Positions 9,345 through 28,514 of a DNA stretch of 64,000 nt are shown here, piece by piece. The notes beneath the pieces were generated by a model that saw only the letters and a list, made by a program, of their open reading frames with translations, was not told the DNA's origin and ran no database searches. Positions within the stretch are counted from its first letter, which is position 1; the number at the start of each line of letters is the position of its first letter. The stretch is from Candidatus Enterousia sp. (GTDB lineage Bacteria; Pseudomonadota; Alphaproteobacteria; Rs-D84), in NCBI GenBank assembly GCA_045613785.1, contig JAZLBQ010000001.1, positions 2,571 through 66,570 on the forward strand, written 5' to 3'. A program made the position numbers and the translations under genes.

Positions 9345-9414
9345 CCGTATATATTCTGTGTTTATTTTATCAAAAATATGTGCTGATAACAAGCAAAATG
9401 AAATTGTTTTATTA

Positions 9415-9693: not shown

Positions 9694-9827
9694 TGTGTTT
9701 TATTCCTTGGGTTTTTATGGGGTATATCTTATTGTTTTTTATGGAAAATTGCAAGGAGTTTTTATTTGCTTGTGAATTTGGGGAAGTTTTGATAAAATAA
9801 AAACAAATTATGTAGGGTGGAGAAAAG

Positions 9828-11981
9828 ATGAAAATTAGAGTCTTGACTGCGTTATTGGCGTTGGTTCCAGGTGTGGCAGTGGCTGCAACCCGTGATGAAA
9901 CAGCACGTATTGGTGTAAATCGTGTCGCTGCTGCTGGTGTGCGTGCACCAACAATGGCTGTGAATATGTCGCCAAATATGAGCGTTGATGTTTCTGTGCC
10001 TGCAAAGAAGGAAGATAAAAATAATTCTGTCGTGGTTCAGCCAGGTGGTGATAAGCCAAGTGGTGGTGATGATTCTGGTGAAGGTAAAGAGCCTGTTATA
10101 AATGTAAATTGTCGTGAGGCATATCGGGCTTGTATGGATGAGTTTTGTTTGTTAGATGAGTCCGAAGGTTATCGTTGTGCTTGTTCGTCTAATATCAATA
10201 AGTCGAAAGATTTAATCAAGGAAATCCAAAAAATTCAAGAAGAGGCGGATAAGTTATATACCGAAGGTGTAGAACGGGAAAATTTGGGGGCAAAAGCACG
10301 CTTGGTCTTTGGTGAAAGTGAGGCGGCTAAGAAAAGTTCTCGTGTGTCGGGGCTTAGTTTCTCGGAGTGGTTGAATTCTGGGGCGATAGATGATGAAGCC
10401 TTGGATACTGATAATGATATTGGTGACGGTTTGTATGCGATGGCTTCTGAATTCTGCTCTGCGGAATTAGAGGGGTGTGCTGATAAAGCTGAAATGGAAG
10501 AGATGTTGTATTCTCGTCAGATTGTTGCAGACTGTAAATCATTTAATTCTTATTTGTCAGAACAGAAAATAAATGCCCAGGCAAATAAACGCACTGCAGA
10601 GGCCGCAGTTCGTCAGGCACGTCTGGCGATGCTGGATACGACTGATAAATATAATCGTGGTGAATGTTTGTTGGCGTATCGGTCCTGTATCGCAGACAAA
10701 GGTGGTTGTGGGGCGAATTTTGAAAACTGTTTAGATGCGGATTTGTTGGGGCGTCGCGCGTATGCCTGTGAAAATGTTTTAGATCAGTGTATGGCGGTCA
10801 GAAATTATGTTTTGCAAGACTGGGAAGCAGAATCAGAATCAATCTTGGTAGATGCGGCAAAGTATGCCGATAAATATCGTCGTCAGACTTGTTTAGCACA
10901 AATTCAGGTTTGTTTGGAAGATGGCTGTTCGACAGGAACTAATTCTGCGTGTTTGACTGATGTCAATGTCGCAGCAGGTGTTTGTCCAATTATTGATGAA
11001 TGTAATGCAATAATCCCTGGTTTAAAAAGTGTAGTAAATGACAAATTAGGTTATCTGCGGACACAATTCTGTCAAAACGATGTTGATGCGTGCTTGCGTG
11101 ATAAGTGCGGTGAAAACTTTACTGCACCAGAGTGTGTCGGTAAAAAAACTTCTGAGATAATCGCAATGTGTCCACAGACAATGTTCCCATCATGCAAAAA
11201 TGAAACTCAGTTTGATATTATTGTGTCGGCTGCTGTTTTGCAGATGGATTATCAGATGTTGCAAGGGTGCGTAAATTATTTTGGCGAACAACTGGGTAAG
11301 GTTTGTGGCACGGATATGGCGTGCTTGCCAACTGATGATGTTGTTGCTGGCTTGATGGAAATTCCTGATTCAGAACAGGGAATGGCAGACTTGCGTGTTA
11401 CGGTTCGTGATAATTCTAAGGCGGCGGTTAATGAATTCTTTAAGCAATTTGAAAAAGATATTACTGTTTCCGCTTGTGTAGATGCAAAAAAACCAGCAGG
11501 TCGCAAGAATTTAGGAGAAAATGTATTTAATACTGCAAAGTTGATTGCTGAAATTGGTGCAGAAAATCGTGCAATGCGTGAACTGGAAGCAAAGATTGCA
11601 GAGTTGTCTCGTCAGCAGGATATAGAAGAGGCCGAAGCAAATTGTTATGCGACATATAAGGTGGAAACACCAGATAAGTCGAGTAAAAATTATAGCTATG
11701 TTCGTAGCGTTGCCTTTGAACCAAGTTTAAGAAATTGTCATGTTTGCCGTATGCAGCAGGTCTGTGAAAAGGGTGGTGAATCCAAGGGAGCAGCTGGTCT
11801 GAAAGGTGCAGCAGGTGGATTGTCAGCTGGGGCTGCGGCAGGAACTATGGTTATGCCTGGCTGGGGAACAGCAATCGGTGGTGTCATCGGTGCAGTCGGT
11901 GGATTGTTCGCAGGACGTAGTGGTGCAGGTGAACAAGAGTTCTGTCAGGAAATCGAAAGTTGCGAAGATATAAATATGTAA
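9828..11981 (+). CDS. giant secreted Cys-rich/coiled-coil protein, CMDxFC family (glycine-zipper C-terminal segment)
   Basis: GGAG RBS and signal peptide MKIRVLTALLALVPGVAVAA. Family box NCREAYRACMDEFCLLDESEGYRCACS. More than 40 Cys. C-terminal GWGTAIGGVIGAVGGLFAG, then ..CEDINM. Confidence 0.85.
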   Translation: MKIRVLTALLALVPGVAVAATRDETARIGVNRVAAAGVRAPTMAVNMSPNMSVDVSVPAKKEDKNNSVVVQPGGDKPSGGDDSGEGKEPVINVNCREAYRACMDEFCLLDESEGYRCACSSNINKSKDLIKEIQKIQEEADKLYTEGVERENLGAKARLVFGESEAAKKSSRVSGLSFSEWLNSGAIDDEALDTDNDIGDGLYAMASEFCSAELEGCADKAEMEEMLYSRQIVADCKSFNSYLSEQKINAQANKRTAEAAVRQARLAMLDTTDKYNRGECLLAYRSCIADKGGCGANFENCLDADLLGRRAYACENVLDQCMAVRNYVLQDWEAESESILVDAAKYADKYRRQTCLAQIQVCLEDGCSTGTNSACLTDVNVAAGVCPIIDECNAIIPGLKSVVNDKLGYLRTQFCQNDVDACLRDKCGENFTAPECVGKKTSEIIAMCPQTMFPSCKNETQFDIIVSAAVLQMDYQMLQGCVNYFGEQLGKVCGTDMACLPTDDVVAGLMEIPDSEQGMADLRVTVRDNSKAAVNEFFKQFEKDITVSACVDAKKPAGRKNLGENVFNTAKLIAEIGAENRAMRELEAKIAELSRQQDIEEAEANCYATYKVETPDKSSKNYSYVRSVAFEPSLRNCHVCRMQQVCEKGGESKGAAGLKGAAGGLSAGAAAGTMVMPGWGTAIGGVIGAVGGLFAGRSGAGEQEFCQEIESCEDINM

Positions 11982-12003
11982 TCTGTTTTTACGGAGAGAG
12001 TTT

Positions 12004-14508: not shown

Positions 14509-14510
14509 AT

Positions 14511-14543
14511 AAAAAAGCAGGCCCTTTTGGGTCTGTTTTTTTT
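14511..14543 (+). terminator. rho-independent terminator
   Basis: GCAGGCCC-TTTT-GGGTCTGT followed by T8. Confidence 0.8.
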
Positions 14544-14623
14544 ATGTATTTTTTCCTGGACAATTTTAGATGTTGTTATGTTATAATCGTATTACAAGAA
14601 CGATTTAACCAAAGGGGACGATT

Positions 14624-15010
14624 ATGAAAAAACTTTCAATGGCGGTGTTGGTTGGTGTTATGTCTGTTGGTGCGGCGTTTGCTGAATTTGAAGGGCCAGC
14701 AGCACCTGATGCAGTTGCAACAAATCCTAAGGGTGGTTTTGTTGGCGGTGCAGAAACAATTGTGACGGTAAAGCAAGTAAATGAAATGCGTGATGATGTT
14801 CCTGTGATTGTCAAGGGGCATATTGTTCAGCGTATGGGTGATGAAAAGTATTTGTTTGAGGATTCGACTGGTTCAATTGCTGTGGAAATTGATGAAGATA
14901 ACTGGCGTGGTCAAACGGTAACACCTGCTGATACAGTTAAATTGTATGGCGAGGTTGACCGTGGATTATTCAAAACAGAAATCGATATTGATTATGTTGA
15001 AAAGTTGTAA
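14624..15010 (+). CDS. periplasmic OB-fold stress protein, YgiW/YdeI (BOF) family
   Basis: 128 aa with a signal peptide. GGFVGGAETIVTVKQV..DDVPVIVKGHIVQRMGDEKYLFEDSTGSIAVEIDEDNW..VKLYGEVD is the typical YgiW pattern. Confidence 0.8.
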   Translation: MKKLSMAVLVGVMSVGAAFAEFEGPAAPDAVATNPKGGFVGGAETIVTVKQVNEMRDDVPVIVKGHIVQRMGDEKYLFEDSTGSIAVEIDEDNWRGQTVTPADTVKLYGEVDRGLFKTEIDIDYVEKL

Positions 15011-15040
15011 AAAAAATCCCCCAGTTGGGGGATTTTTTTT
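15009..15040 (+). terminator. rho-independent terminator (TCCCC/GGGGA family)
   Basis: A8-TCCCCC-AGTT-GGGGGA-T8. Confidence 0.85.
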
Positions 15041-15278
15041 CTCTATATGGGGTGCTTTTTTGTATCTTTTGATTTTAACCCCAATCCCCGGGCGGGGGGT
15101 ATTTTTTTATGGGCGGGATAGTTTTGTGCTTGTGACACGATTTGATTATATGGAACGTCAAATAATGATCTGAATTGACTGTAATTTTGGGCAAAATTGC
15201 CCGTTGTGATAATCTTTATCAAATTTTCCTAAGGGCTGGACAGTGTGGGAAAATAGTCGATTTAATGTGTTCGGACTT

Positions 15279-15842
15279 TTATTTGTTTAGGGCGGTGTTG
15301 ATTTCCGCAAAGTTGTCTTTTGCATCGCCAGCAGCATCGATTTCAGAAAACTTTATATCAGGTGCAGTGCGAAGCCATTTTACAGCAGGCATTGTTATTT
15401 TTTGAAAGTTTTCTAATCTGTGTTTGATTATCTTTATTGCAGAGTCATCGGAACGGGTGCTGCCTTCGTTGACACGTTTTTGTATGCGTTTAATCAATGT
15501 TTGTTCGTCTGTATTTAGAAATAATACGTGTATATTGTATTTATTTGCATAATTTTTAACTAGCCATTTTGCTTGACCCAAGGTTCGTGGAAATCCATCT
15601 AAAATGATGTCGGATTTCTTTTTGTCCAGGCGTGGTTGTATTAGCTTGCAGACCAATTCATCTGGAACTAGGTCGCCTCCGGATATCAATTTCCCAATCT
15701 GAGAATTTGCAGGTTCAGCACGCAGCATAGCACCAGCTTCGATATGGTCAAAGTGGCGTTTGGTCATCAGCATTTGTGAAAAAGTTCCCTTGCCAACGCC
15801 GGGGCCACCCATCATAACAATAATTTCTTTCTTTTCAGACAT
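15279..15842 (-). CDS. adk: short-type adenylate kinase / UMP-CMP kinase family protein
   Basis: P-loop GGPGVGKGT, DGFPRTLGQA, and a lid-less RSDDSAIKIIKHRLENF segment as in short AK/UMP-CMP kinases. Lies directly downstream of rpsA. Confidence 0.8.
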   Translation of the reverse strand: MSEKKEIIVMMGGPGVGKGTFSQMLMTKRHFDHIEAGAMLRAEPANSQIGKLISGGDLVPDELVCKLIQPRLDKKKSDIILDGFPRTLGQAKWLVKNYANKYNIHVLFLNTDEQTLIKRIQKRVNEGSTRSDDSAIKIIKHRLENFQKITMPAVKWLRTAPDIKFSEIDAAGDAKDNFAEINTALNK

Positions 15843-15914
15843 AGTGTAATTGTATCATAAAAAACACGGTCGGGCAAGGTTGCACGACCGTGAAACAATT
15901 CATAAATATACAAA

Positions 15915-17630
15915 TTATTTTTTGCTGTTTTCAATCGCAGCACCCAAGATGTCGCCCAAAACAGAACCGCTGTCTGCTTCGTTCGAGAATTCTTTGACTG
16001 CTTGCTTTTCCAGTGTTACCTGCAAAGCACGGATTGACAGTTTAACAGTGTTGTCTTCAACAGATACAACAGATGCTTCGACGCTGTCGCCGATGTTGTA
16101 TTTGCTTGTGTCCTGTTCTGATTTTTCACGAGACAGGTCTGTGCGGCGAATAACGCCACGGATGTCGCCCTGTAATGACAAAATCAATTCGTCTGGTGTG
16201 ATTTCAGATACAGTTCCGCAAACTACTGCACCTTTTTTGATTGCAGCAGCATTGTTTTCGGCACTTTCTGTCAACTGTTTGATGCCCAATGTAACACGTT
16301 CTTTTTCTGGGTTGATGTCCAGAATCTTGGCTGTTACTTCCTGGCCACGAACGAATTTTTTCAATTCTTCTTCGTCCAGTTTGTTCCATGACAAGTCAGA
16401 AATGTGAACCATACCGTCTAATTCTGATGTCAAGGCAACGAACAAGCCAAATTCAGTTGTGTTCTTGATTGGACCTGTGATTACATCGCCAACATTGTGT
16501 GTTTCTGCAAACTGTTTCCATGGATTTGGTTGCAGTTGTTTATAACCCAATGAAATACGACGTTTGTCTTGGTCAATGCCCAATACAACAACGTTTACAT
16601 CCTGACCGTTTTGCAAAACTTTGCTTGGGTGGATGTTCTTGTTTGTCCATGACAATTCTGACATGTGAACCAAACCTTCGATGTTGTTGCCCAAGTCAAT
16701 GAATGCACCGTAATCTGTCAAAGACGATACCTTGCCAGAAACTGTGTCGCCAACGTTGAATGCACGTGATGCTGTTTCCCATGGGTCTTCTTCCAGTTGT
16801 TTCATACCCAATGAGATACGATGTGATTCTGCGTCGAATTGGATAACTTTGACCTGAATCTTTTCGCCAACATGAACCAATTCACGTGGGTGATTTACAC
16901 GCTTCCATGACAGGTCTGTGACGTGCAACAAGCCGTCAATGCCGCCTAAGTCAACGAATACACCATAATCTGTGATGTTTTTAACAGTTCCTTCCAGAAC
17001 TGCACCCAATGAAATGTTCTTCATTGCTTCACGTTGTGCAGCAGCGATTGTGTCAGACTGGATTGCACGGCGTGATACGATGGCGTTTGTGCGTAATGCG
17101 TCCATCTTTAGAACACGGAATTTGTCCTTTAAGCCAATCAAAGATTTTGCATCACGGATTGGTTTATGGTCAACCTGAGATGATGGCATAAATGCAAATA
17201 CGCCATTGATGTCAACTGTAAAGCCACCACGGACAACGTCAATAATTGTTCCTTCTGGATCAATACCTTCGGCAACTGTCTTTTCCAAGTCTTTCCATGC
17301 TTTTTCTGCACGTGCCTTGGTGTATGACAGAACTGCTGTGCCTTCACGAGATTCATAACGTTCAACAAAAACGTCGATGATATCGCCAATGCTTGGAACA
17401 GATGCACCAAATTCTTTTAATGGAACCCGGCCTTCGGATTTCAAGCCAACGTCAACCATTGCGAAATCGCCACGGATATCCTTGACTGTGCCTTTGGTTG
17501 CATAGCCTTGCAATGTTTCCTGAGAGCCATAGTTTGTGTTAAACATCTGGACAAAATCTTCGCCAGATAATGGATTAAATAAATCTTTGGATAAATCTTT
17601 CATAAGAAAATATTCATCAAAGTTTGCCAT
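15915..17630 (-). CDS. rpsA: 30S ribosomal protein S1
   Basis: Six S1 repeats, for example GTVKDIRGDFAMVDVGLKSEGRVPLKEF and GTVKNITDYGVFVDLGGIDGLLHVTDLSW. Start set at the ATG at 17630 (MANFDEYF..), giving 571 aa, the typical alphaproteobacterial length. Confidence 0.95.
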   Translation of the reverse strand: MANFDEYFLMKDLSKDLFNPLSGEDFVQMFNTNYGSQETLQGYATKGTVKDIRGDFAMVDVGLKSEGRVPLKEFGASVPSIGDIIDVFVERYESREGTAVLSYTKARAEKAWKDLEKTVAEGIDPEGTIIDVVRGGFTVDINGVFAFMPSSQVDHKPIRDAKSLIGLKDKFRVLKMDALRTNAIVSRRAIQSDTIAAAQREAMKNISLGAVLEGTVKNITDYGVFVDLGGIDGLLHVTDLSWKRVNHPRELVHVGEKIQVKVIQFDAESHRISLGMKQLEEDPWETASRAFNVGDTVSGKVSSLTDYGAFIDLGNNIEGLVHMSELSWTNKNIHPSKVLQNGQDVNVVVLGIDQDKRRISLGYKQLQPNPWKQFAETHNVGDVITGPIKNTTEFGLFVALTSELDGMVHISDLSWNKLDEEELKKFVRGQEVTAKILDINPEKERVTLGIKQLTESAENNAAAIKKGAVVCGTVSEITPDELILSLQGDIRGVIRRTDLSREKSEQDTSKYNIGDSVEASVVSVEDNTVKLSIRALQVTLEKQAVKEFSNEADSGSVLGDILGAAIENSKK

Positions 17631-17750
17631 CGCCAAATCTTTGTTTTTTATAGCGAGGACTTGTGGGGTTAGTCGGATTGATTCTGTGCCCACCCACAAA
17701 ATCAGTGTAATTATATATAACTTTATGATTTTTGCAAGTTTTTATTGGAT

Positions 17751-17775
17751 AAAAAAATCCCCGCAGGTGCGGGGA
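17751..17775 (-). terminator. rho-independent terminator
   Basis: Minus strand: TCCCCGCA-CC-TGCGGGGA followed by T7, just after the stop of 17780..18859. Confidence 0.8.
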
Positions 17776-17779
17776 AGGA

Positions 17780-18859
17780 TTAGTCTATTTTGACAGGAAC
17801 TATCGTTTGCTTCTTGGCTGTGTCCAGTGAGTGATATTGGAACGGAACAGATGCAAAATTTATCTCTTTCATGTCCAGACTGCGGACTGTGCGATTATAC
17901 ATCGTATGATAGTATATAACCATATCTTTTAGGTCTGTGGCAACAGTCCACTGGGTGGCCGAAGGCATATTGTTTGGGGCAGTACCTACTGCAAACTGAA
18001 CGCCCAGGGGAACGTCAAAGTTGTTCAGGATATGAAAGGCCTGTTGAATTGTGTCGTATGCATTATCTTGCTGTAAAGAGTAGGTTTTTAAGAATGCTGC
18101 ACGGACAAAGCGTGATGGTGGTGTAAAGTCGCCTGGCAAGCCCAAGAATCCAGAACCAGAACCGAATGAACGCAGTTTAATTGGACCGAACTCGGTTGGG
18201 CCAGCACCACCAGGATGCAGGTTTACATAGTTGTTCAGGTTCGTTAGTTGCCATTGGAATCCTGGGGAATTGGTCAGGACGCCGACTTCGTTTTCGTAAA
18301 AGTTTGGAATGCCATTTACAATTTCCAAGACAACTTGGCGACCATTGGGTTCGGTTATTCGCCAATGGACCGTGCCGGCATTTGGATCAACGTTTATGAT
18401 ACGGACATCATTGATGGCTGCTTTGACTTGGTCGATTGTGGCAAAGCGTGATAATATCCAAGATACAACCTGGAAATCAGCCAAGGATATGTCTTTGTTG
18501 GCTTCGTTATATGGTTCGTAACTGCCGTAGTTTGGAAAGTAAAACAGGGCGGCAGACAGACCGGCTTCGTTTGTGCCGTCGATTATAAATTCAGGCTGTT
18601 CGGTTGCGATGCCGGCATATCCATAGAGTGATGTAAATGACAGGCCGTTCATTGTGCCGTCTGGCAGTAATGATTGGGCAGCATGCCCACGTGGAACAAT
18701 GACATACATATTGTTGTTTTCAGAACCTGACCAGTCCATTGTTCGGGCAACAACAGTTGTGTTGTCTAGTGATTTTAATGTGATGCCTGTGCAGGCGTTT
18801 GATGATTGAATCAGTGCAAGGCACATGGTTAGTGTGGATAAAAATAGTAAATGTTTCAT
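17780..18859 (-). CDS. choloylglycine hydrolase family protein (bile-salt hydrolase / penicillin V acylase-like Ntn hydrolase), secreted
   Basis: Signal peptide ending ..IQSSNA, followed by the nucleophile Cys (CTGITLKS..VVARTMDW). The length and motifs are typical of linear amide C-N hydrolases. Confidence 0.85.
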   Translation of the reverse strand: MKHLLFLSTLTMCLALIQSSNACTGITLKSLDNTTVVARTMDWSGSENNNMYVIVPRGHAAQSLLPDGTMNGLSFTSLYGYAGIATEQPEFIIDGTNEAGLSAALFYFPNYGSYEPYNEANKDISLADFQVVSWILSRFATIDQVKAAINDVRIINVDPNAGTVHWRITEPNGRQVVLEIVNGIPNFYENEVGVLTNSPGFQWQLTNLNNYVNLHPGGAGPTEFGPIKLRSFGSGSGFLGLPGDFTPPSRFVRAAFLKTYSLQQDNAYDTIQQAFHILNNFDVPLGVQFAVGTAPNNMPSATQWTVATDLKDMVIYYHTMYNRTVRSLDMKEINFASVPFQYHSLDTAKKQTIVPVKID

Positions 18860-18931
18860 TTGTTTCCCCCTTTGACAGAATTATTTATGTTTTAGTGGGG
18901 GTAGGGCAATAGGAAGCATTGCCAGGGGATT

Positions 18932-19468
18932 TTAGGCGTTTAGCACAGGTCGCCAAATTTCCATAACAGCATCATGGTTGGCATAGGTGTCCAGGAATTG
19001 AATAAGATTGTTTATCAAATCAATTTGGTGTGATGACCAGTTGTATTTGGGGTTCTTTAAGATAACATTGTCAAAGTATTTTTGGACAGTATAGTCGTGT
19101 TTATCTTCGTGGGTGATAAAGCGTTGTTCAAAACTGGCACTGTGCCAATCACATACCATTTCGACAAGTGTTATGTCGTTGATTTTACTGACGTCGCAAT
19201 AGTGTTCTAAGTGATGTGGTTGCATGCGGTGATGTTCGGCGTGCATTTGGCGGAATAGGTCCAGATTGGCTTTTGGGATATTGTATTCGGGGTGATAACG
19301 GAAATAAATTCTGAATGCGTATGCGGTTTGCATTGGACCAGACATTTTGTCGTTATCATGTTCGGGAAAGTGGTATCCCAACAGGCCTGCAAAATAATTC
19401 AGGCTATTTATGTGTGCGCTGGTTCTGATTTTATGAAATTCGTAAATTGTGTCGATTGATATTTGCAT
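18932..19468 (-). CDS. hypothetical His-rich protein
   Basis: 178-aa ORF with His clusters (HFPEHDND, MHAEHHRMQPHHLEHY, CDWHS). It may bind metal. I cannot name a family with confidence. Confidence 0.6.
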   Translation of the reverse strand: MQISIDTIYEFHKIRTSAHINSLNYFAGLLGYHFPEHDNDKMSGPMQTAYAFRIYFRYHPEYNIPKANLDLFRQMHAEHHRMQPHHLEHYCDVSKINDITLVEMVCDWHSASFEQRFITHEDKHDYTVQKYFDNVILKNPKYNWSSHQIDLINNLIQFLDTYANHDAVMEIWRPVLNA

Positions 19469-19526
19469 AACTGGTATTTTATCATATTTTTTTGTGTTTT
19501 TTATGTGAAAAAATTTCTACTTGCAT

Positions 19527-19563
19527 TGGGGCATAGTTTAACGGTAGAACTCCGGACTCTGAC
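19527..19563 (+). pseudogene. tRNA-Gln 5' half (truncated in the anticodon loop)
   Basis: The 38 nt at 19526..19563 are identical to 24431..24468, covering the acceptor 5' strand, D arm, anticodon 5' stem and loop CTCTGAC. The sequence then diverges. Upstream TTTCTACTTGCATTGG matches the -35 region of the intact gene, but the 33 nt carrying the -10 box are absent. Confidence 0.85.
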
Positions 19564-19756
19564 AACCTATATGCTACACAACAAAAAATCCCAGATTCCC
19601 GCATATTACAGATTGAATCACGGGCAAAATGGCCGTTTAACATTTGTGCATATCACTGCATACAGGCTGGTTTAAGTTGGTTTGTATATGGTTTCAGTTT
19701 TACATATTTTTTACACAGGAAAAGTGTTGCAAAAGCATATCAATGTGTTCAGAAAT

Positions 19757-19783
19757 TAAACCCGCCAATCGGTGGGTGTTTTT
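19757..19783 (-). terminator. probable terminator of the 24039->19784 gene set
   Basis: Hairpin ACCCACC-GATT-GGCGGGT on the minus strand, followed by a weak T-rich run. Confidence 0.5.
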
Positions 19784-22700
19784 TTATTTTCGCATAAATT
19801 CAAAATATTTAGGATCTTCTTTAAATACCTGAACATCAAATATGCCTGTTCGCATTAGCGTTTTGGCGACATCTTCATAACCTTCCTTTTCTGTATTAAG
19901 CAAGAAGCTTACCGATTTATTTTGATCAAGCAAATCGGCCGCTAGGCTATTCACATTGGCATAGGAAGAAAATTTCCCAGTTACTCTGTCATATGGCACT
20001 GCACCCTGTCTTTGGACAGCAAGCATTAAAGCCTCTCCAACGTCAGTATAGTCTTCATAAGAATTCACCACAGATGCAACGTCCCCGATCCTATACGCAG
20101 TCTGTTCTGCTGGCGTTGCACGATACGCATCATCTGATGCACCATACAAGTCTTTAGTGGCATCATATAACTGTGCCCCTAATGCATTTGCGTTTGGGTT
20201 AAGTTCATCAATTGCATGTCCGCCATTTTCATGTGCCAAGGTATTTATAAAACGTTCATAATTTTGTTGCTCATCAAAATCTATGCGGGTTTTGTTTGTC
20301 TTGGGGTAATATGCTCCGACAGTATTATCTGTGAATTTGTGAGCTTCTATAGTCGGTGCACGGTGGCGTGGAATTCCGTTCATTTCAAGCAATTTATTAG
20401 AAATTTCTTGGGCAAATATCGTTTTTTGATCTGTTGTTAGGCTGTACCAATTTTGCTTCATTGATTTTAGCCATTCGTCAGATTCAATTATATCGTGTAT
20501 TTGGTCCGCACGTAATAATGCAATTTCATCTAGTCGTTCTATTTGAACAGTATTTCCCACATCAAGTAAAACTTTGTCTGTGGTTAATTTTCTGATTCGT
20601 TCAGATCCTGCTCTTTTTGCTTTTTTGGCTTCATCGGCTGTTGTTTCCCCTTTTTCAACTAGCTTGTTTTGATAGTCTTCTACCTGTGAATATCTGGCTT
20701 TATATTCATCTATATGCTCTTGCGCGGTTCTTTTTATTTGTCGTACATCACGATTAAATGTAGAATAATTACCGGTAAAACCGTGATTTAGGACATGTTC
20801 ATAACTGATCATTTTGGAGCGTAAAACTTCTATTTTTGGATATTGTCTGGCAAATTCTGTTGGGTTGTCTAGATATAAATCAAATACTTCATCGGGGGCA
20901 GTCCGCCAAAAATCATCCAATTCTTTTTTTACTTGGGGCAAATTTGTTCTTGCTTCATTCATTATTGCTTTCATGCTTTCATCATTCAATGGGGCATCCC
21001 AAGAAACCCAATTCTTTGACATTTGTTGCATCTTTGATAAATCATTGTCTGCCATCGCTTTGAAATCATCCAACGACTGGTTGCGTGGGGCGTATTTTCT
21101 GTGAAGTTCACGCCAAACCGCTTCAACATCATCCAAATTGTCGGTGGCACGCATTTGTGGAATTTTACGTTTTAATATCAGCCAGTTGCCAGTAAGGCTA
21201 TCTTTTTGAGCCCGTTCTACAATATCTATTATGGCGTCGAATTTCTGTTTTATTGCGGCGGTACTTTTGGCTATGCGACTGGATTTTGAAATCGCCCATT
21301 TGGTAATACCGGTTATCACCGATGCCAATTGCAGGCCAATACCAACCGCACGCCATACCTGTTCCGGTTCCCAAGATTCCCAGAACCCTGCTTTGTTATC
21401 CGCCATGTCGGTACCATTTACCAACATGGTTGCCCAGATTTCGTCATCGTCTGGTATCAGGTTTGCCAGGCGGGCCAGTTCACTGTCAACTGCGTCCGCC
21501 TCGGCATCGGTCATGTCATTTTGGACATTTGCCATGCGTTGCAAGTTTTCGGCCAGCATTTTCTTGGCACACGTTGCGTTTTTACATTTATTACTTTCCA
21601 CCAAGAAATTGTCTGCAATGCCGTTTATTTTTAGTTGACTGGTTATTTCAATACCGGCACCAACGGTTTCAATGGCGGTAAATGCAATTGCAGACTTGGT
21701 CGCTGTGGCCGTGCCAGCAACAGCGGCGGTGGCGGTCCCGACGGTCGCAACAGTGATAACAATCCCAACAATTGCACCACCAACAATCATTGTAATGTTT
21801 ATACCCCTTTGCAGGTTTTGTGCAGATGCAGATGATGGCAATACGCAACTTTGTGTTTTATCGTCCCATTTTGCAGCCTTGCATTCTGGACATTCTTTCA
21901 GGTTTGATTTTCGCAAGACTTCGCATTGTTGTTCGCCCAAGCCGATACAACGTTTGCCGCTGTATGTGCCGCCTGTGACGATACAGGACATTCCCTGAAC
22001 ACCACCGGCAACAGTCTTTTTCCATTTTTCATTTATATCATTAAAAACAAAGTCTATTTGATTGTCACCAACACGACATGTTTTTATGTCGTCTTTGAAA
22101 TCGGTTATGCCATTTCTTGCACAGCCCGTGCCGGTATATGTATTAAACCCAGAATCACATTTGACCGATGATTCCGATACACCCGCACGTTCGGCAACAT
22201 ATTGTTTCAGATATGTTTCAACATTGGGCGCATTTGTAACCTGAATGCCGTGACAGAATACAAAGTTATCAATGCCGTATGCTGTTTTTAGGTCTTTTTG
22301 TTTGGTGACTGTATTAAAGTTTATTTCGCATTTTCCATTTTTATATTCTGCTATATACCCAAATTTGGCCATGGATTGGTTTATTTTTGCACATTTTGCA
22401 CTGTCTGCCGCACAGGATGCAGACCAACATGTGGCGGTGCCACTGACATTTGTGCCGCCGCCCGCACAGCCGGCCGTGGTTGGTTTTGCATCATACATAC
22501 GACAGATTGCGTTTTGAATGCTGTTCTTTATGATTTGGTCTTTTGGTTCTTCTAAATCGTCAAACACGAATTCATAGTATGCGTTTTGGTTATGTGATGT
22601 GCACATTAACGTGTAGTCTAAGGTGCCTTTATCAAAGTTGCCTTTGCATTGTCCTGTTGTGTCGTTGTGTTTTAATCGTGCGTATTCCTTGGCTAATGTT

Positions 22701-23110
22701 TGGCCTGGGGTCAAATTGACCTGGGTTCCGCCATAGATTTTGTTTGTAAAGAAATCATCAACGCATATATAGCCGGCTTTGCCTTTGTATTGTTTGTCGC
22801 ATGCGTGATAAAATTTTATATTTGCTTTTTTAACCAGCGTATTTACAAATTTTTGACATTGTGATTTGCCGTCCGATTTTTTGATGTCCCAGCCAGCAAT
22901 TGCACAAATATTCCATAATTTTTGGGCGGATATACCAGTGCCATTGGATTGCTTTATTTGATTGTTATATTCGCTGATTACAGAAAATTGTTTTTCGGCT
23001 GGCACGAATTCTTTTACAACAGATTCCACCGTAGATGGATTTATGTGAATGTTTGCCAAACATGGTGTAATAAAAAACAGCGATAATAATGTCAGGGCTA
23101 TTTTTTTCAT
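19784..23110 (-). CDS. large membrane-spanning protein: Cys-rich ectodomain, Gly/Ala/Thr-rich TM region, ~500-aa C-terminal domain (hypothetical)
   Basis: The ATG at 23110 overlaps the upstream stop (ATGA) and gives signal peptide MKKIALTLLSLFFITPCLA. About 430 aa with >30 Cys come first. Next is ITMIVGGAIVGIVITVATVGTATAAVAGTA and a second hydrophobic segment. The long charged C-terminal domain contains the HENGGH motif. Confidence 0.75.
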   Translation of the reverse strand: MKKIALTLLSLFFITPCLANIHINPSTVESVVKEFVPAEKQFSVISEYNNQIKQSNGTGISAQKLWNICAIAGWDIKKSDGKSQCQKFVNTLVKKANIKFYHACDKQYKGKAGYICVDDFFTNKIYGGTQVNLTPGQTLAKEYARLKHNDTTGQCKGNFDKGTLDYTLMCTSHNQNAYYEFVFDDLEEPKDQIIKNSIQNAICRMYDAKPTTAGCAGGGTNVSGTATCWSASCAADSAKCAKINQSMAKFGYIAEYKNGKCEINFNTVTKQKDLKTAYGIDNFVFCHGIQVTNAPNVETYLKQYVAERAGVSESSVKCDSGFNTYTGTGCARNGITDFKDDIKTCRVGDNQIDFVFNDINEKWKKTVAGGVQGMSCIVTGGTYSGKRCIGLGEQQCEVLRKSNLKECPECKAAKWDDKTQSCVLPSSASAQNLQRGINITMIVGGAIVGIVITVATVGTATAAVAGTATATKSAIAFTAIETVGAGIEITSQLKINGIADNFLVESNKCKNATCAKKMLAENLQRMANVQNDMTDAEADAVDSELARLANLIPDDDEIWATMLVNGTDMADNKAGFWESWEPEQVWRAVGIGLQLASVITGITKWAISKSSRIAKSTAAIKQKFDAIIDIVERAQKDSLTGNWLILKRKIPQMRATDNLDDVEAVWRELHRKYAPRNQSLDDFKAMADNDLSKMQQMSKNWVSWDAPLNDESMKAIMNEARTNLPQVKKELDDFWRTAPDEVFDLYLDNPTEFARQYPKIEVLRSKMISYEHVLNHGFTGNYSTFNRDVRQIKRTAQEHIDEYKARYSQVEDYQNKLVEKGETTADEAKKAKRAGSERIRKLTTDKVLLDVGNTVQIERLDEIALLRADQIHDIIESDEWLKSMKQNWYSLTTDQKTIFAQEISNKLLEMNGIPRHRAPTIEAHKFTDNTVGAYYPKTNKTRIDFDEQQNYERFINTLAHENGGHAIDELNPNANALGAQLYDATKDLYGASDDAYRATPAEQTAYRIGDVASVVNSYEDYTDVGEALMLAVQRQGAVPYDRVTGKFSSYANVNSLAADLLDQNKSVSFLLNTEKEGYEDVAKTLMRTGIFDVQVFKEDPKYFEFMRK

Positions 23111-24039
23111 TTCAATACCCCCGTACATTTTTCGGCAACCGTTGCTACTTTTTTGATTGCACTGATTTGCGTTGCATTGAACACAGTTGCCATGGCGGAT
23201 GCCGCCGTTGTCCCAATTGCCAATGTGTTTGCCGCAGTATTTAGATTTTTTTCTTTTTGCTTGCCAGATTCTGTATTATCGTTGCGTGTTTTGTCTGTGT
23301 TTGCGGTGGCGGATATGATTGTTCCGGTCAGCCCAGTTGCGGCACCAACGGTAGATGATATCATTGCACCCTTGGCACGATTGTTGATTTTTGATATGTC
23401 AACATACTCGTATTCGCCACAGGCTGTGGCAATAGATTGTGCCTCAGTAATATCCTCGCCATTTATTCGTGCCTGTATTATGGATTTTTGCAAGGTTTTG
23501 ACACTGCTGATACAGTTATTGATTTGTGTTTGCAGGTCAGCATCTACTTTGTTCGTGCCGGCAATAATTGCACCGGCCACATTGGTTGCTGTGCTACCCG
23601 CCATTAAACCAGTACGCCAGTTGCCCAGTTTTTTGGATTGTTTGGTTAATTTATCTAACTCGGCCTGTGCGCCATCTATATCTTTGATTGCAATGTCATA
23701 GGATTGTTCAAACTCCGTCAGAAACGCCTGTTGTTCGGCATCGGTGGGATAGATTGCGTTTTTCTCTAATTATTCCAGCTCTTTGATAAGTTTTTCTAAT
23801 TCTTCGGCTTGATTGTCTTTGGATTGTTTTACGAACCCCGTGACCGTTGCACCAATGCCGGCCGCCGTTCCAACAGATGTAATTGCGGTGTTTATGCCGG
23901 CCATTGTTTTCAACTCACTCAATTCATCATCAATTCCCACACATGTAGCGTATGTGGCACGTAACGCATCATCCAACGGCAATATATTTGCCGATGCCAC
24001 AAATGGGAAAATTATAAAAAACAAGGTAATATATCGCAT
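23107..24039 (-). pseudogene. secreted Gly/Ala/Thr-rich repeat protein interrupted by a single in-frame TAA (23770..23772)
   Basis: Track ORFs 23770..24087 and 23107..23604 are in the same frame (483 nt apart). The 165 nt between them have no further stop and no ATG/GTG/TTG until 23604. The ATG at 24039 gives signal peptide MRYITLFFIIFPFVASA. Four similar G/A/T-rich hydrophobic modules span both halves. Confidence 0.55.
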
Positions 24040-24392
24040 GACTACATTCGTGTGAATTGTATCATATATTTGCATGGATTTATACACAATTTTTACATGC
24101 GTAGGCTTGTGGTGTAATGGGAAGAGAAATGTGAAAATATATTCAAAAATTATTTCAAAATGCCCCGGTTTTACATAGGAAGTAGTGGTTTTTTGTGCGT
24201 TTTTCAGATCAGCGGACTAGCGGAACAATGGTCTGGAAAAATTAAAAGTGGCGGGAATATGGTGTTTTTAATGTAAAATCAAGGTGATGGTTATTGTTTA
24301 GGGGTGTATTAGATACATATTTTATATGTATAAAAGTGCTTTCATTTTGCAAAAATTTTTACATATTTTTTACATGGGGATTAACTTTCTGC

Positions 24393-24421
24393 TTGCATTG
24401 GAAATAAAAAAGCCTTATAAT
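24393..24421 (+). promoter_or_regulatory. sigma70-type promoter of tRNA-Gln
   Basis: TTGCAT-N17-TATAAT. The -10 box ends 10 nt before the mature tRNA 5' end. Confidence 0.7.
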
Positions 24422-24431
24422 CCGCCGTGCT

Positions 24432-24505
24432 TGGGGCATAGTTTAACGGTAGAACTCCGGACTCTGACTCCGTCAGTGTTGGTTCGAATCCAGCTGCCCC
24501 AACCA
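24432..24505 (+). tRNA. tRNA-Gln (anticodon CUG)
   Basis: 74-nt cloverleaf folded by hand. Acceptor TGGGGCA/TGCCCCA, D arm GTTT/GAAC, anticodon loop CTCTGAC, T arm GTTGG-TTCGAAT-CCAGC, encoded CCA. Close to E. coli tRNA-Gln. One C-U mismatch at 27-43. Confidence 0.9.
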
Positions 24506-24650
24506 AGATTCTATTGTCCCCTTTTTGGGGGCGTTTTTTTATTAGATAGGGATAGGAATAAAAGAATAATTTTATTGATTATTTATTCTGATGTGCTATG
24601 AATTGTTTATCTGTAATTTTCAGAAATTTGTTTTTAGAAAAGGAGAGCTC

Positions 24651-27600
24651 ATGTCCAATACAAAACATTTGGCGGATTTTTTGAAAGTCTGCAGTTTATT
24701 GCCAGCATTGGCGATTATGCCTGCAATGGCGGAAACTGAGATTATTGAAGAACGATTGAATTTGACGGCTGATAAAATTTATCAAACAGATGTTTTGGCG
24801 GATGGGGTAGTTGGTTCGCAAGGTGGCGTTTTCTATGTCGGTAAGGATGTTGGACTGGTCTTTCAAGATGACGCGACGTTTAAAAATAATGTTGCACAGG
24901 GAAAAAATGTCCATGGTGGGGCAATCTATAATGAAGGTCGGGTTGATTTCGCAGATGATGCAACTTTTTCTGGCAACAAGACTTATTCTGGCGGTGGTGC
25001 AATTAGAAACTTGGCATCAGGATTGATGACTTTTAATGGTGATGCAGAATTTGATGGAAATTTGGTTCTGTATTCCAAAGACAATAGCGTTGGTGGCAGT
25101 GGAGCTGCAATAAATAATAACGGTAAAATCGTTTTTAATGGTGAAGCAACTTTTAAAAATAACAGTGCCTTAGATAGAAAAGATAGCTATTCACAGGGTG
25201 GGGCGATTTACAATGGTGGTGAATTAGTATTTAACGGCACTGCAAAATTTACAGGAAATGCTAGTTATAACAAAGGTAGTGTAATAGAAAATACTGCTGC
25301 TGGTAAAATAACTTTTAATAAGGGCCTTGTTGTAAATGGTAATGGAACAGATTTAAAAGGAAATTCTTCGAACGGTATAAATAATTCAGGAACCATGAAT
25401 ATCTCTGGTGGTGATGTAATTATTACAAACAATAATACTGGCGGAATTGCTGGGATTTCAACTGGTGCTGTGTTGAATATTGATGCAGGTGATTCCGGTA
25501 AGATTTTATTTGAAAATAATACAACACGGGATTCTATTGTTGGGTTGTATTCTTCAGGCAGTGAAACAACATTGTTAGCTGATTTAATCTCGTTTAAAAA
25601 TAATGTTCAGACAAGTAATACTGCCAAGGTTTATGGTGGTGCAGTTTATAATGGTGGGTCTGGTTCAGATCAGGGTGTGCTGAAACTGTTGGCGAAAAAT
25701 ATTGTCTTTGAAGGAAATACTTTGAACGGTTTCCAGGACGGGCATAAAAAAATTGGCGGTGCAGCACTGTATAATCGTGGTGGTGGCGATTCTGCTAGTG
25801 TGACAGAAACATTTGTTGGTTTGGCAGACGGAACAAGCACGATCTTGTTCAAAAACAATTCTTCGGCACAGCATGGAGGGGCGATTTTTGGGCGAACAGA
25901 TGACGGAACTGGTTTTGATGCACAGTTGACTTTGACTGGTAATGTTGAATTTTCTGGAAATAGTGCCGGTGAAAACGGTGGTGCTATTATGAACTGGACC
26001 GATGGTCGTGGTGGATTGACTGATATCAATATTGTTGGAAATGTTTCTTTTGAAAATAATATCGCTGGTAAAAGTGGAGGGGCTATTTTCAATAGCGGAA
26101 CAGTTGATTTAAGCAAAGCTGTTGCTGAATTTGAAGGAAATATCGCCAAAGGTAATTATGGTGGGGCAATTTATAATGCCGCTTCTGGTAAGTTCGTAAA
26201 TTTGACAGCAGAGTTTGAAGAGAACAAGGTTCAAAATGATGATTTCGCTGCCGGTGGTGCAATTGCAAATATTGGAAAGATTGCTGAACTGACTGGGGAA
26301 TTTGAAGAAAATTCTGTTCTTGCAACAACTGATAATGTTATAACATCCGCAAAAGGTGGTGCGATTTATACGTTTGCTGGTTCAACAATTGACTCAATCG
26401 TTGCTGACTTTGATGGTAATTTTGCTATCAGTGGTGGTGAAGCAATGGGTGGTGCAATCGTTAATGATGGTAAAATCGGAAAACTGCATCAGTTAAAAGA
26501 TGGTTTTGTAAATAATAAGGTTGATGCCAAGGTTTATGCCTGGGCAGGTGCGTTGTATAACAGTCAAGGGGCAACAATTGATGAATTAAAGGCGGACTTT
26601 ACTGCTAATTCTGTTAAAGGGGCATTGTGGTCCGTTGGTGGTGCGGTATTGAATTATGGCACTGTTGGCACATTGACTGGTAATTTTACAAATAATTCTG
26701 TAGTGGCAACTGAACAAGATGGGTCAGCATTGGGGGGGGCAATATTGAACTTTGATACTATCCAGGCATTGAGTGGTAATTTCATTGGAAATACAGCGTC
26801 AGCTGCAACAGCAGAGTATGCAATGGGGGGGGCAATTGAAAACTATTCCGGGACAATCAATGTCGTTGGGGATAATTTGTTCCACAAGAATATGGCTGAT
26901 TATGGTGGGGCAATTGACAACAATGATGTGCTGAATTTGACAGGTAAAAACGTATTTACTGGCAACAAGGCAAATTATGATGGTGGGGCAATTTATAATG
27001 CTGGCACGTTGAATTTGGCTGGGGAAATCATCTTCGCTGATAACGTTCATGGAAAATATAATGCTGCCAATGACATCGTAAATGAAGGTGCTTTGAATAT
27101 TACAGCAGGAACAACAACCTTTGGTGGTGGTGTCAAGGGAACTGGTGATTTGGTATTGGCCGAAGGGGCAATATTAAATATTGGCACAACTACAATTCAT
27201 CAGGGGACTATCAATTTACAGGGAACTGTTATCGCTTCGCTGGTAAATAATCAGCGTGGAAATGGATATGGTCGTTTCGTTGGTGATATCACAGTCGGGG
27301 CAAATGCAATGTTTGAATTGAACGTTGGTGCCGTTGGAACATATAATATCTGGGATGGTAATGTGATTAGTAAAGATCAGATTATTGTCGGTGATATATA
27401 TGAAATTGCAAATATTGATACCAATGGTGTTCAAATTGTGACTAAATCTGTCGAAAAGGTTGCACAAGATGTTGGACTTTCAACCCAGGCGGCGGGTGCG
27501 GTTGTAAGTATGGCAAATTCAAATATTGGTAAATCGCATCAGATTTCTTTGGCGTTGCAAAATGCGTTGAACAGTGGCGATGCAGAATATGTCGAGGCAG

Positions 27601-28514
27601 AAACCAAGAAATTAAACCCAACAGATAAACCTGTTACCCAGGCGGCTGCGGCTTCAATGCAAAATCAGATTTTGTCGCTGGCATCAGGACGTATGTCTGG
27701 CGGAATGGCAATGGGACGTGCCGGTGGTGACGAGGCAACCCAGGAAAATGGTTTCTGGATTCAAGGATTGTTTAACAAGTCTAAGTTCGCAGATAAATTC
27801 CATGGATATACACGTGGTGTTGCACTGGGGGCAGATACATTGCTTGAAAAGACTTGGACATTGGGTGGCGGTTTGGCATTTAATAATTCTGATGTTCATG
27901 CTGATGGTTTACATACAAATATCGACAGCAGAACCGTGTTCTTGTATGGTCAGTATAAGCCGGGCAAATGGTTTGTAAATTCGACTTTGACATATAACAT
28001 GTCTGAATATACAGACGATAAAACTGTTGCTGCAATCAAGTTGTCAAATACATACGATGTCGATTCGTATGGTGCCCAGATTATGACTGGCTTCGATTTT
28101 GCAACAGGTATCACGACCGAGGCTGGATTGCGTTATCTGCATATTGCACAGGAAGGCTATACAGATGAATTGGGTAATCCTGTTAGTGAAATGGACAACA
28201 GTTTCTTGTCTGGTGTTGCGGGCGTAAAGTATGCGTTTGAAATTGAAAACGATTGGTCCATTCAGTTGCGTCCAGAATTGCGTGCTGCAATGACATACGA
28301 TTTTGTCAGTGATGATGCGGTTGCAACGGTTGTCTTGCCGGGGGTTGCATCATACGAGGTTGCGACAGATCGTTTGAGTCGTTTGGGTGGTGAATTCGGT
28401 ATCGGATTGACTGCACTATATAAAGGTATGGAAATTTCCGTGATGTATGATTTAGATTTACACCAAGATTATACATCTCAGACGGGTATGATAAAGTTCC
28501 GTGGAAAGTTCTGA
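24651..28514 (+). CDS. autotransporter with polymorphic-membrane-protein (Pmp-type GGAI / FxxN) repeats
   Basis: The ATG at 24651 follows AAAGGAG and gives a signal peptide ..LLPALAIMPAMA. There are more than 20 GGAI[YFV]N / FxxN repeat units. The C-terminal ~280 aa are an autotransporter beta-domain ending ..MIKFRGKF. Confidence 0.85.
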   Translation: MSNTKHLADFLKVCSLLPALAIMPAMAETEIIEERLNLTADKIYQTDVLADGVVGSQGGVFYVGKDVGLVFQDDATFKNNVAQGKNVHGGAIYNEGRVDFADDATFSGNKTYSGGGAIRNLASGLMTFNGDAEFDGNLVLYSKDNSVGGSGAAINNNGKIVFNGEATFKNNSALDRKDSYSQGGAIYNGGELVFNGTAKFTGNASYNKGSVIENTAAGKITFNKGLVVNGNGTDLKGNSSNGINNSGTMNISGGDVIITNNNTGGIAGISTGAVLNIDAGDSGKILFENNTTRDSIVGLYSSGSETTLLADLISFKNNVQTSNTAKVYGGAVYNGGSGSDQGVLKLLAKNIVFEGNTLNGFQDGHKKIGGAALYNRGGGDSASVTETFVGLADGTSTILFKNNSSAQHGGAIFGRTDDGTGFDAQLTLTGNVEFSGNSAGENGGAIMNWTDGRGGLTDINIVGNVSFENNIAGKSGGAIFNSGTVDLSKAVAEFEGNIAKGNYGGAIYNAASGKFVNLTAEFEENKVQNDDFAAGGAIANIGKIAELTGEFEENSVLATTDNVITSAKGGAIYTFAGSTIDSIVADFDGNFAISGGEAMGGAIVNDGKIGKLHQLKDGFVNNKVDAKVYAWAGALYNSQGATIDELKADFTANSVKGALWSVGGAVLNYGTVGTLTGNFTNNSVVATEQDGSALGGAILNFDTIQALSGNFIGNTASAATAEYAMGGAIENYSGTINVVGDNLFHKNMADYGGAIDNNDVLNLTGKNVFTGNKANYDGGAIYNAGTLNLAGEIIFADNVHGKYNAANDIVNEGALNITAGTTTFGGGVKGTGDLVLAEGAILNIGTTTIHQGTINLQGTVIASLVNNQRGNGYGRFVGDITVGANAMFELNVGAVGTYNIWDGNVISKDQIIVGDIYEIANIDTNGVQIVTKSVEKVAQDVGLSTQAAGAVVSMANSNIGKSHQISLALQNALNSGDAEYVEAETKKLNPTDKPVTQAAAASMQNQILSLASGRMSGGMAMGRAGGDEATQENGFWIQGLFNKSKFADKFHGYTRGVALGADTLLEKTWTLGGGLAFNNSDVHADGLHTNIDSRTVFLYGQYKPGKWFVNSTLTYNMSEYTDDKTVAAIKLSNTYDVDSYGAQIMTGFDFATGITTEAGLRYLHIAQEGYTDELGNPVSEMDNSFLSGVAGVKYAFEIENDWSIQLRPELRAAMTYDFVSDDAVATVVLPGVASYEVATDRLSRLGGEFGIGLTALYKGMEISVMYDLDLHQDYTSQTGMIKFRGKF
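26732..26739 (+). repeat. G8 homopolymer inside the Pmp autotransporter CDS
   Basis: TGGGGGGGGC, encoding part of a GGAI repeat. Confidence 0.95.
26825..26832 (+). repeat. G8 homopolymer inside the Pmp autotransporter CDS
   Basis: ATGGGGGGGGC, a second tract 93 nt downstream of the first. Confidence 0.95.

Follow-up and report, generated by a model that had tools for sequence, protein, structure and literature searches.

The question raised by this locus is why an intact tRNA-Gln(CUG) gene should be accompanied by a displaced copy of its own 5′ half, at the far side of a 4.9 kilobase (kb) segment that carries two overlapping minus-strand genes, here called BIG and SMALL. The locus lies in a 64-kb stretch of a Candidatus Enterousia sp. 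metagenome-assembled genome (MAG), referred to below as the window, and all coordinates are window positions. We consider it probable that the segment between the two copies (19564-24431) represents the remains of a non-autonomous integrative cassette of reversed polarity, located at the anticodon loop of tRNA-Gln(CUG). The preliminary description of this DNA had suggested a decayed integrative element of unusual polarity, which supplied its own tRNA 5′ half and promoter, and this suggestion is supported by empty sites in relatives, by pairs of near-identical loci that differ in occupancy, by the distribution of promoter types and by clade integrases that use the same loop. The argument turns on the following features.

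24432-24505, plus strand: intact tRNA-Gln(CUG) gene (ARAGORN; Rfam tRNA, 62.9 bits).
19527-19563, plus strand: displaced 5′ half of tRNA-Gln(CUG), corresponding to gene positions 1-37, the last base being the end of the anticodon loop.
24383-24431, plus strand: type-A promoter, putatively supplied by the cassette and conserved before the intact tRNA in nearly all occupied loci.
19511-19526, plus strand: remnant of a type-A tRNA promoter (89% identity to 24383-24401), with a -35-like TTGCAT at 19521-19526, fused directly to the tRNA fragment.
19564-19722, plus strand: conserved non-coding block of ~160 nucleotides (nt), the putative P′ arm of the attachment (att) site of the element.
19698-19715, plus strand: left copy of the 18-mer TTTTACATATTTTTTACA, at the end of the conserved block.
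24357-24374, plus strand: right-hand 18-mer, separated by 57 nt from the tRNA downstream of it (76 nt from one start to the other), putatively within the P arm.

The two tRNA copies form an exact 38-nt direct repeat (19526-19563 and 24431-24468), made up of the first 37 nt of tRNA-Gln and one upstream T, as the preliminary description had it; the repeat was recovered in a repeat search, and the intact gene by ARAGORN and Rfam. Direct reading of the sequence likewise bears out that the identity stops at the 3′ edge of the anticodon loop, the last base of the left copy being the final base of CTCTGAC. A tRNA segment in direct repeat flanks the island, one of its copies lying inside an intact tRNA-Gln, while the displaced partial copy represents the 5′ part of the gene, and the identity ends at a 7-nt anticodon loop flanked by its stem. 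A direct repeat of 38 nt far exceeds the usual target duplications of transposons in length. Neither a transposase (by Pfam, among the open reading frames (ORFs) of the cassette or the other cargo examined) nor terminal inverted repeats were found, and the integrase and the inverted repeats at the cassette ends that would mark an integron are similarly lacking, in keeping with the earlier statement that the cassette holds no integrase, transposase or bracketing inverted repeat. Across 18800-24700, Rfam at E<=1 identifies tRNA and no other family. A split tRNA of the Nanoarchaeum type does not fit either, the tRNA-Gln gene being intact and no orphan 3′ half of it occurring anywhere in the window. 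In the suggested check of composition, the tetranucleotide distance of the cassette is mildly deviant (2.2 standard deviations, 96.6th percentile of equal-size window segments) and its GC content is flat (0.406 against 0.411 elsewhere in the window), and composition provides no useful signal here.

In front of the intact tRNA, TTGCAT (24393-24398) is followed after a 17-nt spacer by a perfect TATAAT (24416-24421), which lies 10 nt from the tRNA. A related 19-mer containing TTGCAT precedes both tRNA copies (19511-19529 and 24383-24401; 89% identity), which upholds the claim that the left copy retains its -35 region. There the TTGCAT abuts the tRNA fragment, and the 33 nt that include the -10 box are missing between bounding TTGG motifs, again as previously read. 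Both copies of the reported 18-nt repeat exist, the right one at the position given for it (24357-24374) and the left one at 19698-19715 rather than 19699-19716. The search for further copies yielded none: the 18-mer has two sites only in the 64 kb, with up to 2 mismatches allowed, against a chance expectation of 0.01, and the conserved block likewise occurs once within the window.

A scan with the tRNA-Gln 5′ half against one genome per species returned at least 119 stretches, labelled as loci (L001 and so on); all sequences compared are MAGs, and genomes of the order Rs-D84 are mostly below 1 Mb (PMC12306168). Among the matches listed, to which the counts of fragments and blocks given here refer throughout, 106 full and 23 truncated 5′ halves are present (L126 is merely cut by the end of its tile). 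All of the truncated copies end in CTCTGAC, at the same point in the window and in 22 other loci, and every one then runs into the conserved block, reading (T/A)NCNN-ATATGCTACACAAC...TTTTACATATTTTTTACA. The cut 5′ half and block are found in ~20 Candidatus Enterousia (Rs-D84) assemblies. The length of fragment and block together is 197-198 nt in all copies but one, while partial blocks are observed in L003 (minus 48 nt), L054 and L128 (first ~70 nt only) and L021 and L102 (tail only). The block is 89-96% identical to that of the window in ~20 species; their CBAH proteins reach only 62-84% identity to that of the window, and their tRNA promoters cannot be aligned.

Both copies of the 5′ half can be observed in eight loci, the window and seven others, in the order fragment, block with 18-mer, cargo of ~0.7-4.6 kb, promoter and full tRNA, the distance from fragment to full tRNA ranging from 958 to 4905 nt. 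A second 18-mer, exact or near-exact, and a type-A promoter are present in 6/8 of these loci, while a second 18-mer is missing from L029, with an A2 promoter, and L035, with a different promoter. An array with two fragments and one full copy is found in JAZLDK. The cargo diverges 3′ of the block and is unrelated from locus to locus. It includes an S8 peptidase, a NUDIX hydrolase, a class I aminoacyl-tRNA synthetase, a ResIII/DEAD helicase, a PcfJ-like protein and an M16 peptidase; GNAT acetyltransferases, methyltransferases including a Dam-type restriction-modification set, and a histidine phosphatase; and SMALL homologues with various partners, as well as several proteins of no family.

Presence and absence of the cassette are polymorphic among close relatives. 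The layout of the clade consists of CBAH (minus strand), usually DUF5662 (minus strand), ~80-190 nt, tRNA-Gln (plus strand) and often then an autotransporter gene, which constitutes an empty site, and empty target sites of this kind are found in close relatives of occupied loci. The proposed comparison of relatives at tRNA-Gln revealed many empty sites and two pairs that differ in occupancy. In the left flank, as far as the -35 of the promoter, the occupied L003 and the empty L108 have 98.8-99% identity across 1.5-3.1 kb. Similarly, the occupied L008 and the empty L119 are 97.4% identical and colinear through the promoter and the 5′ half, after which L008 continues into the block and L119 into the tRNA 3′ half. 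The nearest relative of the window, JAZTYU (L080), is ~97% identical to it from the tRNA into the autotransporter gene, but its promoter is of another variant, its D-loop differs at a C/T position, and the cargo gene beside its tRNA is a different one (of the 368-aa family). As the two are similar from the tRNA onward and divergent upstream, with the D-loop difference, the switch point lies inside the tRNA, and a boundary at this position is what a crossover in the anticodon loop would predict. In two MAGs, SIG46 (L051, L121) and MAG63 (L008, L052), an empty locus is accompanied by a separate contig that starts at fragment and block; these are probably strain mixtures, with both alleles in one sample.

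Several lineage-own promoter types can be distinguished in front of the tRNA copies, and displaced fragments bear the type found before the intact tRNA of empty relatives (L079/L091, L035/L030, L032/L025, L125/L016-L098), while the rebuilt tRNA beside the cargo has a type-A promoter in almost all occupied loci. Fragment and full copy furthermore differ at the D-loop C/T position in L022 and L047, as do the window and L080. With the 5′ part of the tRNA displaced, the rebuilt gene must owe its own 5′ part and its promoter to the element, and comparison across loci suggests that this is so. The displaced promoter in the window is itself of type A, and the tRNA-Gln site of the window may therefore have undergone rebuilding more than once. 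A similar -10 deletion occurs in L003, between TTGGGG repeats of an A2-type promoter; it must have arisen independently, because L108, which is 99% identical to L003, lacks it. The -10 deletion in the window is secondary decay, and the repeated loss of this box hints that silencing of the truncated tRNA may be favoured.

Integrases were sought with Pfam in the cargo and with a motif scan and tblastn over 1.05 Mb of fetched sequence. The ORFs of the cassette match no Pfam family, and the search for a cognate integrase came back empty in the 64-kb window, where neither of the two clade integrases described below is matched by tblastn. Elsewhere in the clade, the tyrosine integrase P0088 (PF00589) is encoded ~340 nt downstream of tRNA-Gln in L087 and L131-L138, with an 84% identical homologue in L046. 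P0088 is present in at least 24 contigs as part of a 5-7 kb element, with a conserved gene set and an exact tRNA 3′ half at its end. The junction at the end of this element reads ...ttattatgaaaaaaCTCTGAC-TCCGTCAG..., and the tRNA identity therefore begins at the anticodon loop (CTCTGAC). The normal-polarity repeat thus extends from the loop to the 3′ end of the tRNA and the reversed one from the 5′ end to the loop, their overlap being exactly the 7-nt loop. The overlap region of tyrosine recombinases is 7 nt in length. In half of the eight P0088 loci (L131, L133, L136 and L138), the fragment, block, cargo, 18-mer and promoter A are also present on the 5′ side of the tRNA, both original tRNA halves being displaced (in L131 the arrangement spans 7897-16722).

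A second integrase, P4-like and 406 amino acids in length (Arm-DNA-bind_3 plus PF00589), is encoded together with an AlpA/HTH_17 excisionase on the minus strand, directly 5′ of a type-B promoter and tRNA-Gln, in L098 and L134 (100% identical). Homologues with contact-dependent toxin cargo are found at the same position in L140 (63% identity) and in L141-L146 (59% identity). The latter are six contigs from six sequencing runs, all beginning ~207 nt before the excisionase gene, and L141, the one that was read, ends 31 nt into the tRNA-Gln 5′ half, as expected if this half is repeated in the genome. Remnants of the excisionase gene can be observed upstream of the type-B promoters of L016, L027, L059, L107 and L125, which together with the P4-like loci indicates that modules of integrase, excisionase, promoter and 5′ half exist in the clade. 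An integrase lies beside the promoter and 5′-half end in the type-B loci L098, L134, L140 and L141-L146, whereas the type-A module of the window has none.

Several further arrangements occur at these integrase loci. A mini-island in L098 (1937-2200) consists of a full tRNA-Gln, ~145 nt with an 18-mer, and CTCTGAC with an exact repeat of the 3′ half; it appears to be what is left of a normal-polarity element, one likewise equipped with the 18-mer. In L139 (4222-7351), DUF5662 is inverted and located 3′ of tRNA-Gln, with a truncated P4-like integrase gene between CBAH and the tRNA; in L140 (1-260), the 5′ half recurs in inverted orientation ~160 nt 3′ of tRNA-Gln. The two arrangements suggest inversions through the tRNA site.

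A mechanism can be proposed in which the element recombined, with reversed polarity, with the chromosomal tRNA-Gln(CUG) inside the 7-nt loop CTCTGAC. Crossover would take place in the anticodon loop, between the two arms of the attachment region of the element: a P arm comprising one 18-mer, a promoter of the sigma-70 type and the 5′ half of the tRNA, and a P′ arm represented by the ~160-nt block with the other 18-mer at its end. In exchanging strands, a tyrosine integrase would join the promoter and 5′ half of the element to the chromosomal 3′ half, giving the working tRNA at 24432-24505, in which the 5′ half (24432-24468) would be element-borne and the 3′ half chromosomal, while the earlier promoter and 5′ half would end up joined to the block (19511-19722). 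We infer that a site-specific integrase made this particular insertion; the enzyme would have acted in trans or been lost, leaving a cassette without an integrase, and later decay would have deleted the -10 box of the displaced promoter and introduced the stop codon in SMALL. The 18-mers are putative arm sites. The same 18-mer is also located ~45-60 nt downstream of tRNA-Gln in L098 and L140, beside the P4-like integrases, and ATTATATCAYAT, upstream of the 18-mer, reads on the opposite strand as an extended -10 box that would serve the cargo gene transcribed leftward. The 18-mer may represent an arm site or simply an A/T-rich promoter element.

A number of observations weigh against the proposal of an integrative cassette. 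No integrase is encoded in any type-A cargo examined by Pfam, motif scan and tblastn, that of the window included. GGGACA arm repeats of the kind found in the P0088 element were considered and rejected, as none is present in the block or the P arm, and the 5 nt following the loop are variable (TCCAC, AGCCC, AACCT, ACCCC), which is loose for a core binding site. Type-A-like promoters also precede the empty-looking sites L108, L087 and L097, and the equation of type A with element-borne is therefore not absolute. One cargo gene, that for the class I aminoacyl-tRNA synthetase, could have a housekeeping role. The search yielded neither an excised circle nor a free attP, patterns for the junction and the tRNA 5′ half matching no viral contig; the junction pattern matched only four metagenome contigs, and P-O-P′ junctions are found in L054, L090, L125 and L129, where they are equally expected from tandem arrays. 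Finally, recombination between the 37-nt repeats could alone account for the losses.

This last point leads to an explanation that we regard as rather unlikely, in which the 5′ half and block were duplicated once, at an early date, in the ancestor of Enterousia, the stretch from fragment to tRNA has since been a hot spot of gene gain, loss and exchange through ordinary homologous recombination at the block and tRNA anchors, empty sites have arisen by deletion between the 37-nt repeats, and no site-specific enzyme is at work today. The lack of any integrase in type-A cargo, the ordinary metabolic or housekeeping-like genes among that cargo and the mosaic appearance of the block variants would all be accommodated. 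Deletion between the repeats would moreover restore the native promoter and tRNA exactly, and the near-isogenic pairs of empty and occupied loci on their own are consequently no proof of integration. However, conservation of the block at 89-96% among species with unalignable promoters and such divergent CBAH proteins would need strong selection or horizontal spread, and transfer between lineages would have to cross over within the 37-38 nt tRNA halves because the outer flanks differ. A break point fixed at the loop, clade integrases that use exactly this loop, and integrase-excisionase modules physically joined to a promoter and 5′ half argue further against it. Homologous recombination between the conserved anchors could nevertheless lie behind part of the cargo turnover.

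The constant length and high conservation of fragment and block could also point to a functional RNA, namely a tRNA-derived chimeric small RNA of ~200 nt transcribed from a tRNA promoter, to which the variable genes are incidental. The full -35/-10 promoter is kept in most copies, the end of the block carries a T-rich tract, and one hairpin tolerates changes only as G-U wobble pairs. Against this, the block matches no Rfam family, and RNAalifold on 16 sequences of fragment and block gives -23 kcal/mol over 199 columns with no covariation (0 compensatory pairs), the sequences being too conserved for this to serve as a test of structure. Furthermore, the -10 box is gone in the window and L003, the block is partial in the five loci given above, and it was never found at an empty site. 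This explanation is accordingly improbable.

A tandem duplication, in which the left fragment is a decayed second tRNA-Gln gene with unrelated genes in between, would account for the same orientation of both copies and for the part of the promoter retained by the left one, and is very improbable. Decay would not cut 23 copies in ~20 species at one base and before the same 160-nt block; no 3′ half remnant follows any fragment, nor is an orphan one found in the window; and more distant relatives, in the tiles examined, have a single tRNA-Gln copy directly beside the conserved flank. An artefact of metagenome assembly or binning is a negligible alternative: all sequences are from MAGs, and several contigs do end where the 5′ half is repeated, but the repeat has a length of only 38 nt, a single contig spans both copies in the window, and over 12 independent assemblies, made in different studies and with different assemblers, have the same layout.

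Returning to the integrative cassette as the preferred reading, a broader arrangement may tentatively be proposed as possible. The anticodon loop of Enterousia tRNA-Gln would be two-sided, with integrase-bearing elements docking on the 3′ side and integrase-less cassettes, mobilised in trans by means of a ~290-nt module (18-mer, promoter, 5′ half, loop, 160-nt block, 18-mer), on the 5′ side, and would function as an integron-like collector of accessory genes in genomes of less than 1 Mb. Two-sided docking as in L131, L133, L136 and L138 would mean that a working tRNA can be built entirely from mobile DNA, and the tRNA in these four loci would be assembled wholly from element-borne halves.

The cargo of the window and the sequences around it comprise the following features.

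19784-23110, minus strand: BIG, ~1108 amino acids from an MKKI start, the ORF running to 23128.
23107-24039, minus strand: SMALL, ~310 amino acids, with a signal peptide and a TAA nonsense codon at 23770-23772.
19760-19777, no strand assigned: GC-rich hairpin terminator right after the BIG stop codon, part of the cargo.
24069-24099, plus strand: degenerate 18-mer-like sequence (24080-24097) in the leftward promoter region of SMALL, repeating 24346-24376 at 81%.
24100-24356, plus strand: non-coding spacer of ~260 nt (family a), also located 5′ of the 18-mer in L017, L047, L084, L086 and L097.

BIG and SMALL constitute a two-gene module of secreted proteins. The preliminary description of two minus-strand genes for secreted or membrane proteins between the repeats stands, except that SMALL (23107-24039) is interrupted by the in-frame TAA. 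A GAA to TAA change at 23770-23772 splits the gene into ORFs at 23770-24087 and 23107-23604, while homologues in L086, L011 and L102 are intact and read KELEELEKN, with GAA at the position of the TAA; SMALL is either a pseudogene or the product of a single-base assembly error. It belongs to no Pfam family. BIG contains a signal peptide, a cysteine-rich N-terminal domain and a hydrophobic segment, and its C-terminal domain is helical, with an HExxxH that is invariant. Among 35 BIG homologues, H966-E967-x3-H971, Y1002 and E1008 are invariant, as are many cysteines in the N-terminal half. BIG shows no Pfam family, no PDB sequence match and no Foldseek match below E=0.001, and its one match in NCBIfam, to HblD, is sub-threshold. 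The C-terminal domain (~residues 660-1020) is predicted by AlphaFold with a predicted local distance difference test (pLDDT) score near 90 and matches no fold in the PDB; it could represent a new metal-binding effector domain.

The homologues of BIG and the matches to the tRNA pattern all derive from uncultured gut Alphaproteobacteria, mostly named Candidatus Enterousia. The SMALL/BIG layout of the window recurs in JAZRJE (L094 plus L086), L011, L102, L129 and L003, and the nearest cargo homologues (L003, L086, L011, L102 and L129) share the same tRNA-Gln context. More distant SMALL/BIG pairs, which are other copies of a multi-copy family, are located beside tRNA-Ser or tRNA-Met (L001, L002, L004-L007); homology to L001 reaches 19746. 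It had been pointed out that the same cassette in relatives lacking any association with tRNA-Gln would speak against an element at this site, but the closest homologues are all at tRNA-Gln. The pairs beside tRNA-Ser (L001, L002) were considered as a refutation of the tRNA-Gln link and rejected, because closer homologues lie at tRNA-Gln and the family is multi-copy. In L004 (13500-17960), a SMALL/BIG-like pair (309 and 903 amino acids) lies between an intact tRNA-Met(CAU) (17880-17954, minus strand) and a repeat of its 3′ part, which begins in the anticodon loop, and a comparable arrangement is found in L007 (13600-13880). A 19-nt repeat that extends from the T-loop to the 3′ end is also located ~165 nt after tRNA-Met. 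The L004 and L007 pairs are integrase-less cassettes of normal polarity at tRNA-Met.

In the window, the ~260-nt spacer sits between 18-mer-like sequences. It contains a conserved hairpin, CCAGACC...GGTCTGG (~24207-24240), and is shared with L017, L047, L084, L086 and L097 whatever the cargo. Its folding energy does not surpass that of shuffled sequences (z-score -0.67). Directly after tRNA-Gln, an autotransporter with Chlamydia PMP repeats is encoded (24591-28514; 1307 amino acids). Identity of its product amounts to 96% in JAZTYU (L080) and falls to 30-60% in other species, which indicates that the 3′ flank is also fast-evolving. The second tRNA gene of the window, tRNA-Leu(CAA), is located at 58785-58869 on the minus strand. 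The GC skew falls from ~+0.25 to ~0 at 15000-24000, where S1, CBAH, DUF5662, BIG and SMALL are all on the minus strand, and cumulative GC skew climbs steadily in the rest of the window.

The loci described here represent a family of cassettes with one shared attachment module and unrelated cargo, present in ~20 uncultured gut species with genomes of less than 1 Mb, which lack a recombinase of their own and have the same 7-nt crossover as a conventional integrase element at the opposite side of tRNA-Gln. If mobilised in trans, they would give reduced genomes a simple means of gene flux that has not been described so far and would be missed by island-finding programs that need a 3′ fragment and an integrase, and would offer a compact natural design in which insertion is site-specific and the target is rebuilt. 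For the window, this would explain a strain-variable pair of secreted-protein genes beside an autotransporter gene.

Islands in tRNA genes are textbook knowledge, and nearly all of them replace the 3′ part of the tRNA; to our knowledge, few cases of elements that replace the 5′ part have been described. Islands and prophages that target tRNA genes with tyrosine integrases crossing over in the anticodon loop were reportedly treated by Williams in 2002. The Enterousia cassettes resemble such classical islands in the direct tRNA repeat, the identity ending at the 7-nt loop, the sporadic distribution and the restoration of an intact tRNA, and the P0088 element, a bona fide classical member within the clade, uses this very loop of tRNA-Gln. 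They differ in that the 5′ rather than the 3′ part is duplicated, a promoter is supplied and the island contains no integrase. Typical elements carry a tRNA fragment in attP with int beside att, and satellites are possible where int is missing (bioRxiv 10.1101/2020.01.24.918748). Like the non-autonomous islands and satellites discussed there, the cassettes have att-like repeats, cargo only and a presumed outside enzyme; unlike them, the att module itself is conserved and includes a promoter and half a tRNA.

Integron cassettes share with the present ones a fixed chromosomal site that gathers short, promoter-less or self-contained and unrelated cargo, at times in arrays (JAZLDK). However, there is no IntI, no attI/attC hairpins and no common promoter (Pc) here, and the repeat unit is half a tRNA gene with arms. 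The closest parallel in polarity is with reverse-orientation, 5′-replacing elements, which, as generally understood, likewise have a displaced tRNA 5′ part and a crossover at a tRNA stem-loop; Zhao and Williams (2002) is said to be the source for recombination at the 5′-distal part of tRNA genes. In contrast to these, the Enterousia cassettes mostly lack an integrase, have a conserved att module of ~290 nt and, within one clade of reduced genomes, recur in ~20 species, at times as arrays, their small cargo being very diverse. Recombination with the 5′-distal part of tRNA genes is described as 'considerably less frequent' than with the 3′ part (PMC6563490). Reversed polarity is as such already known, though rare, and the new part is a conserved att module that carries a promoter and no integrase.

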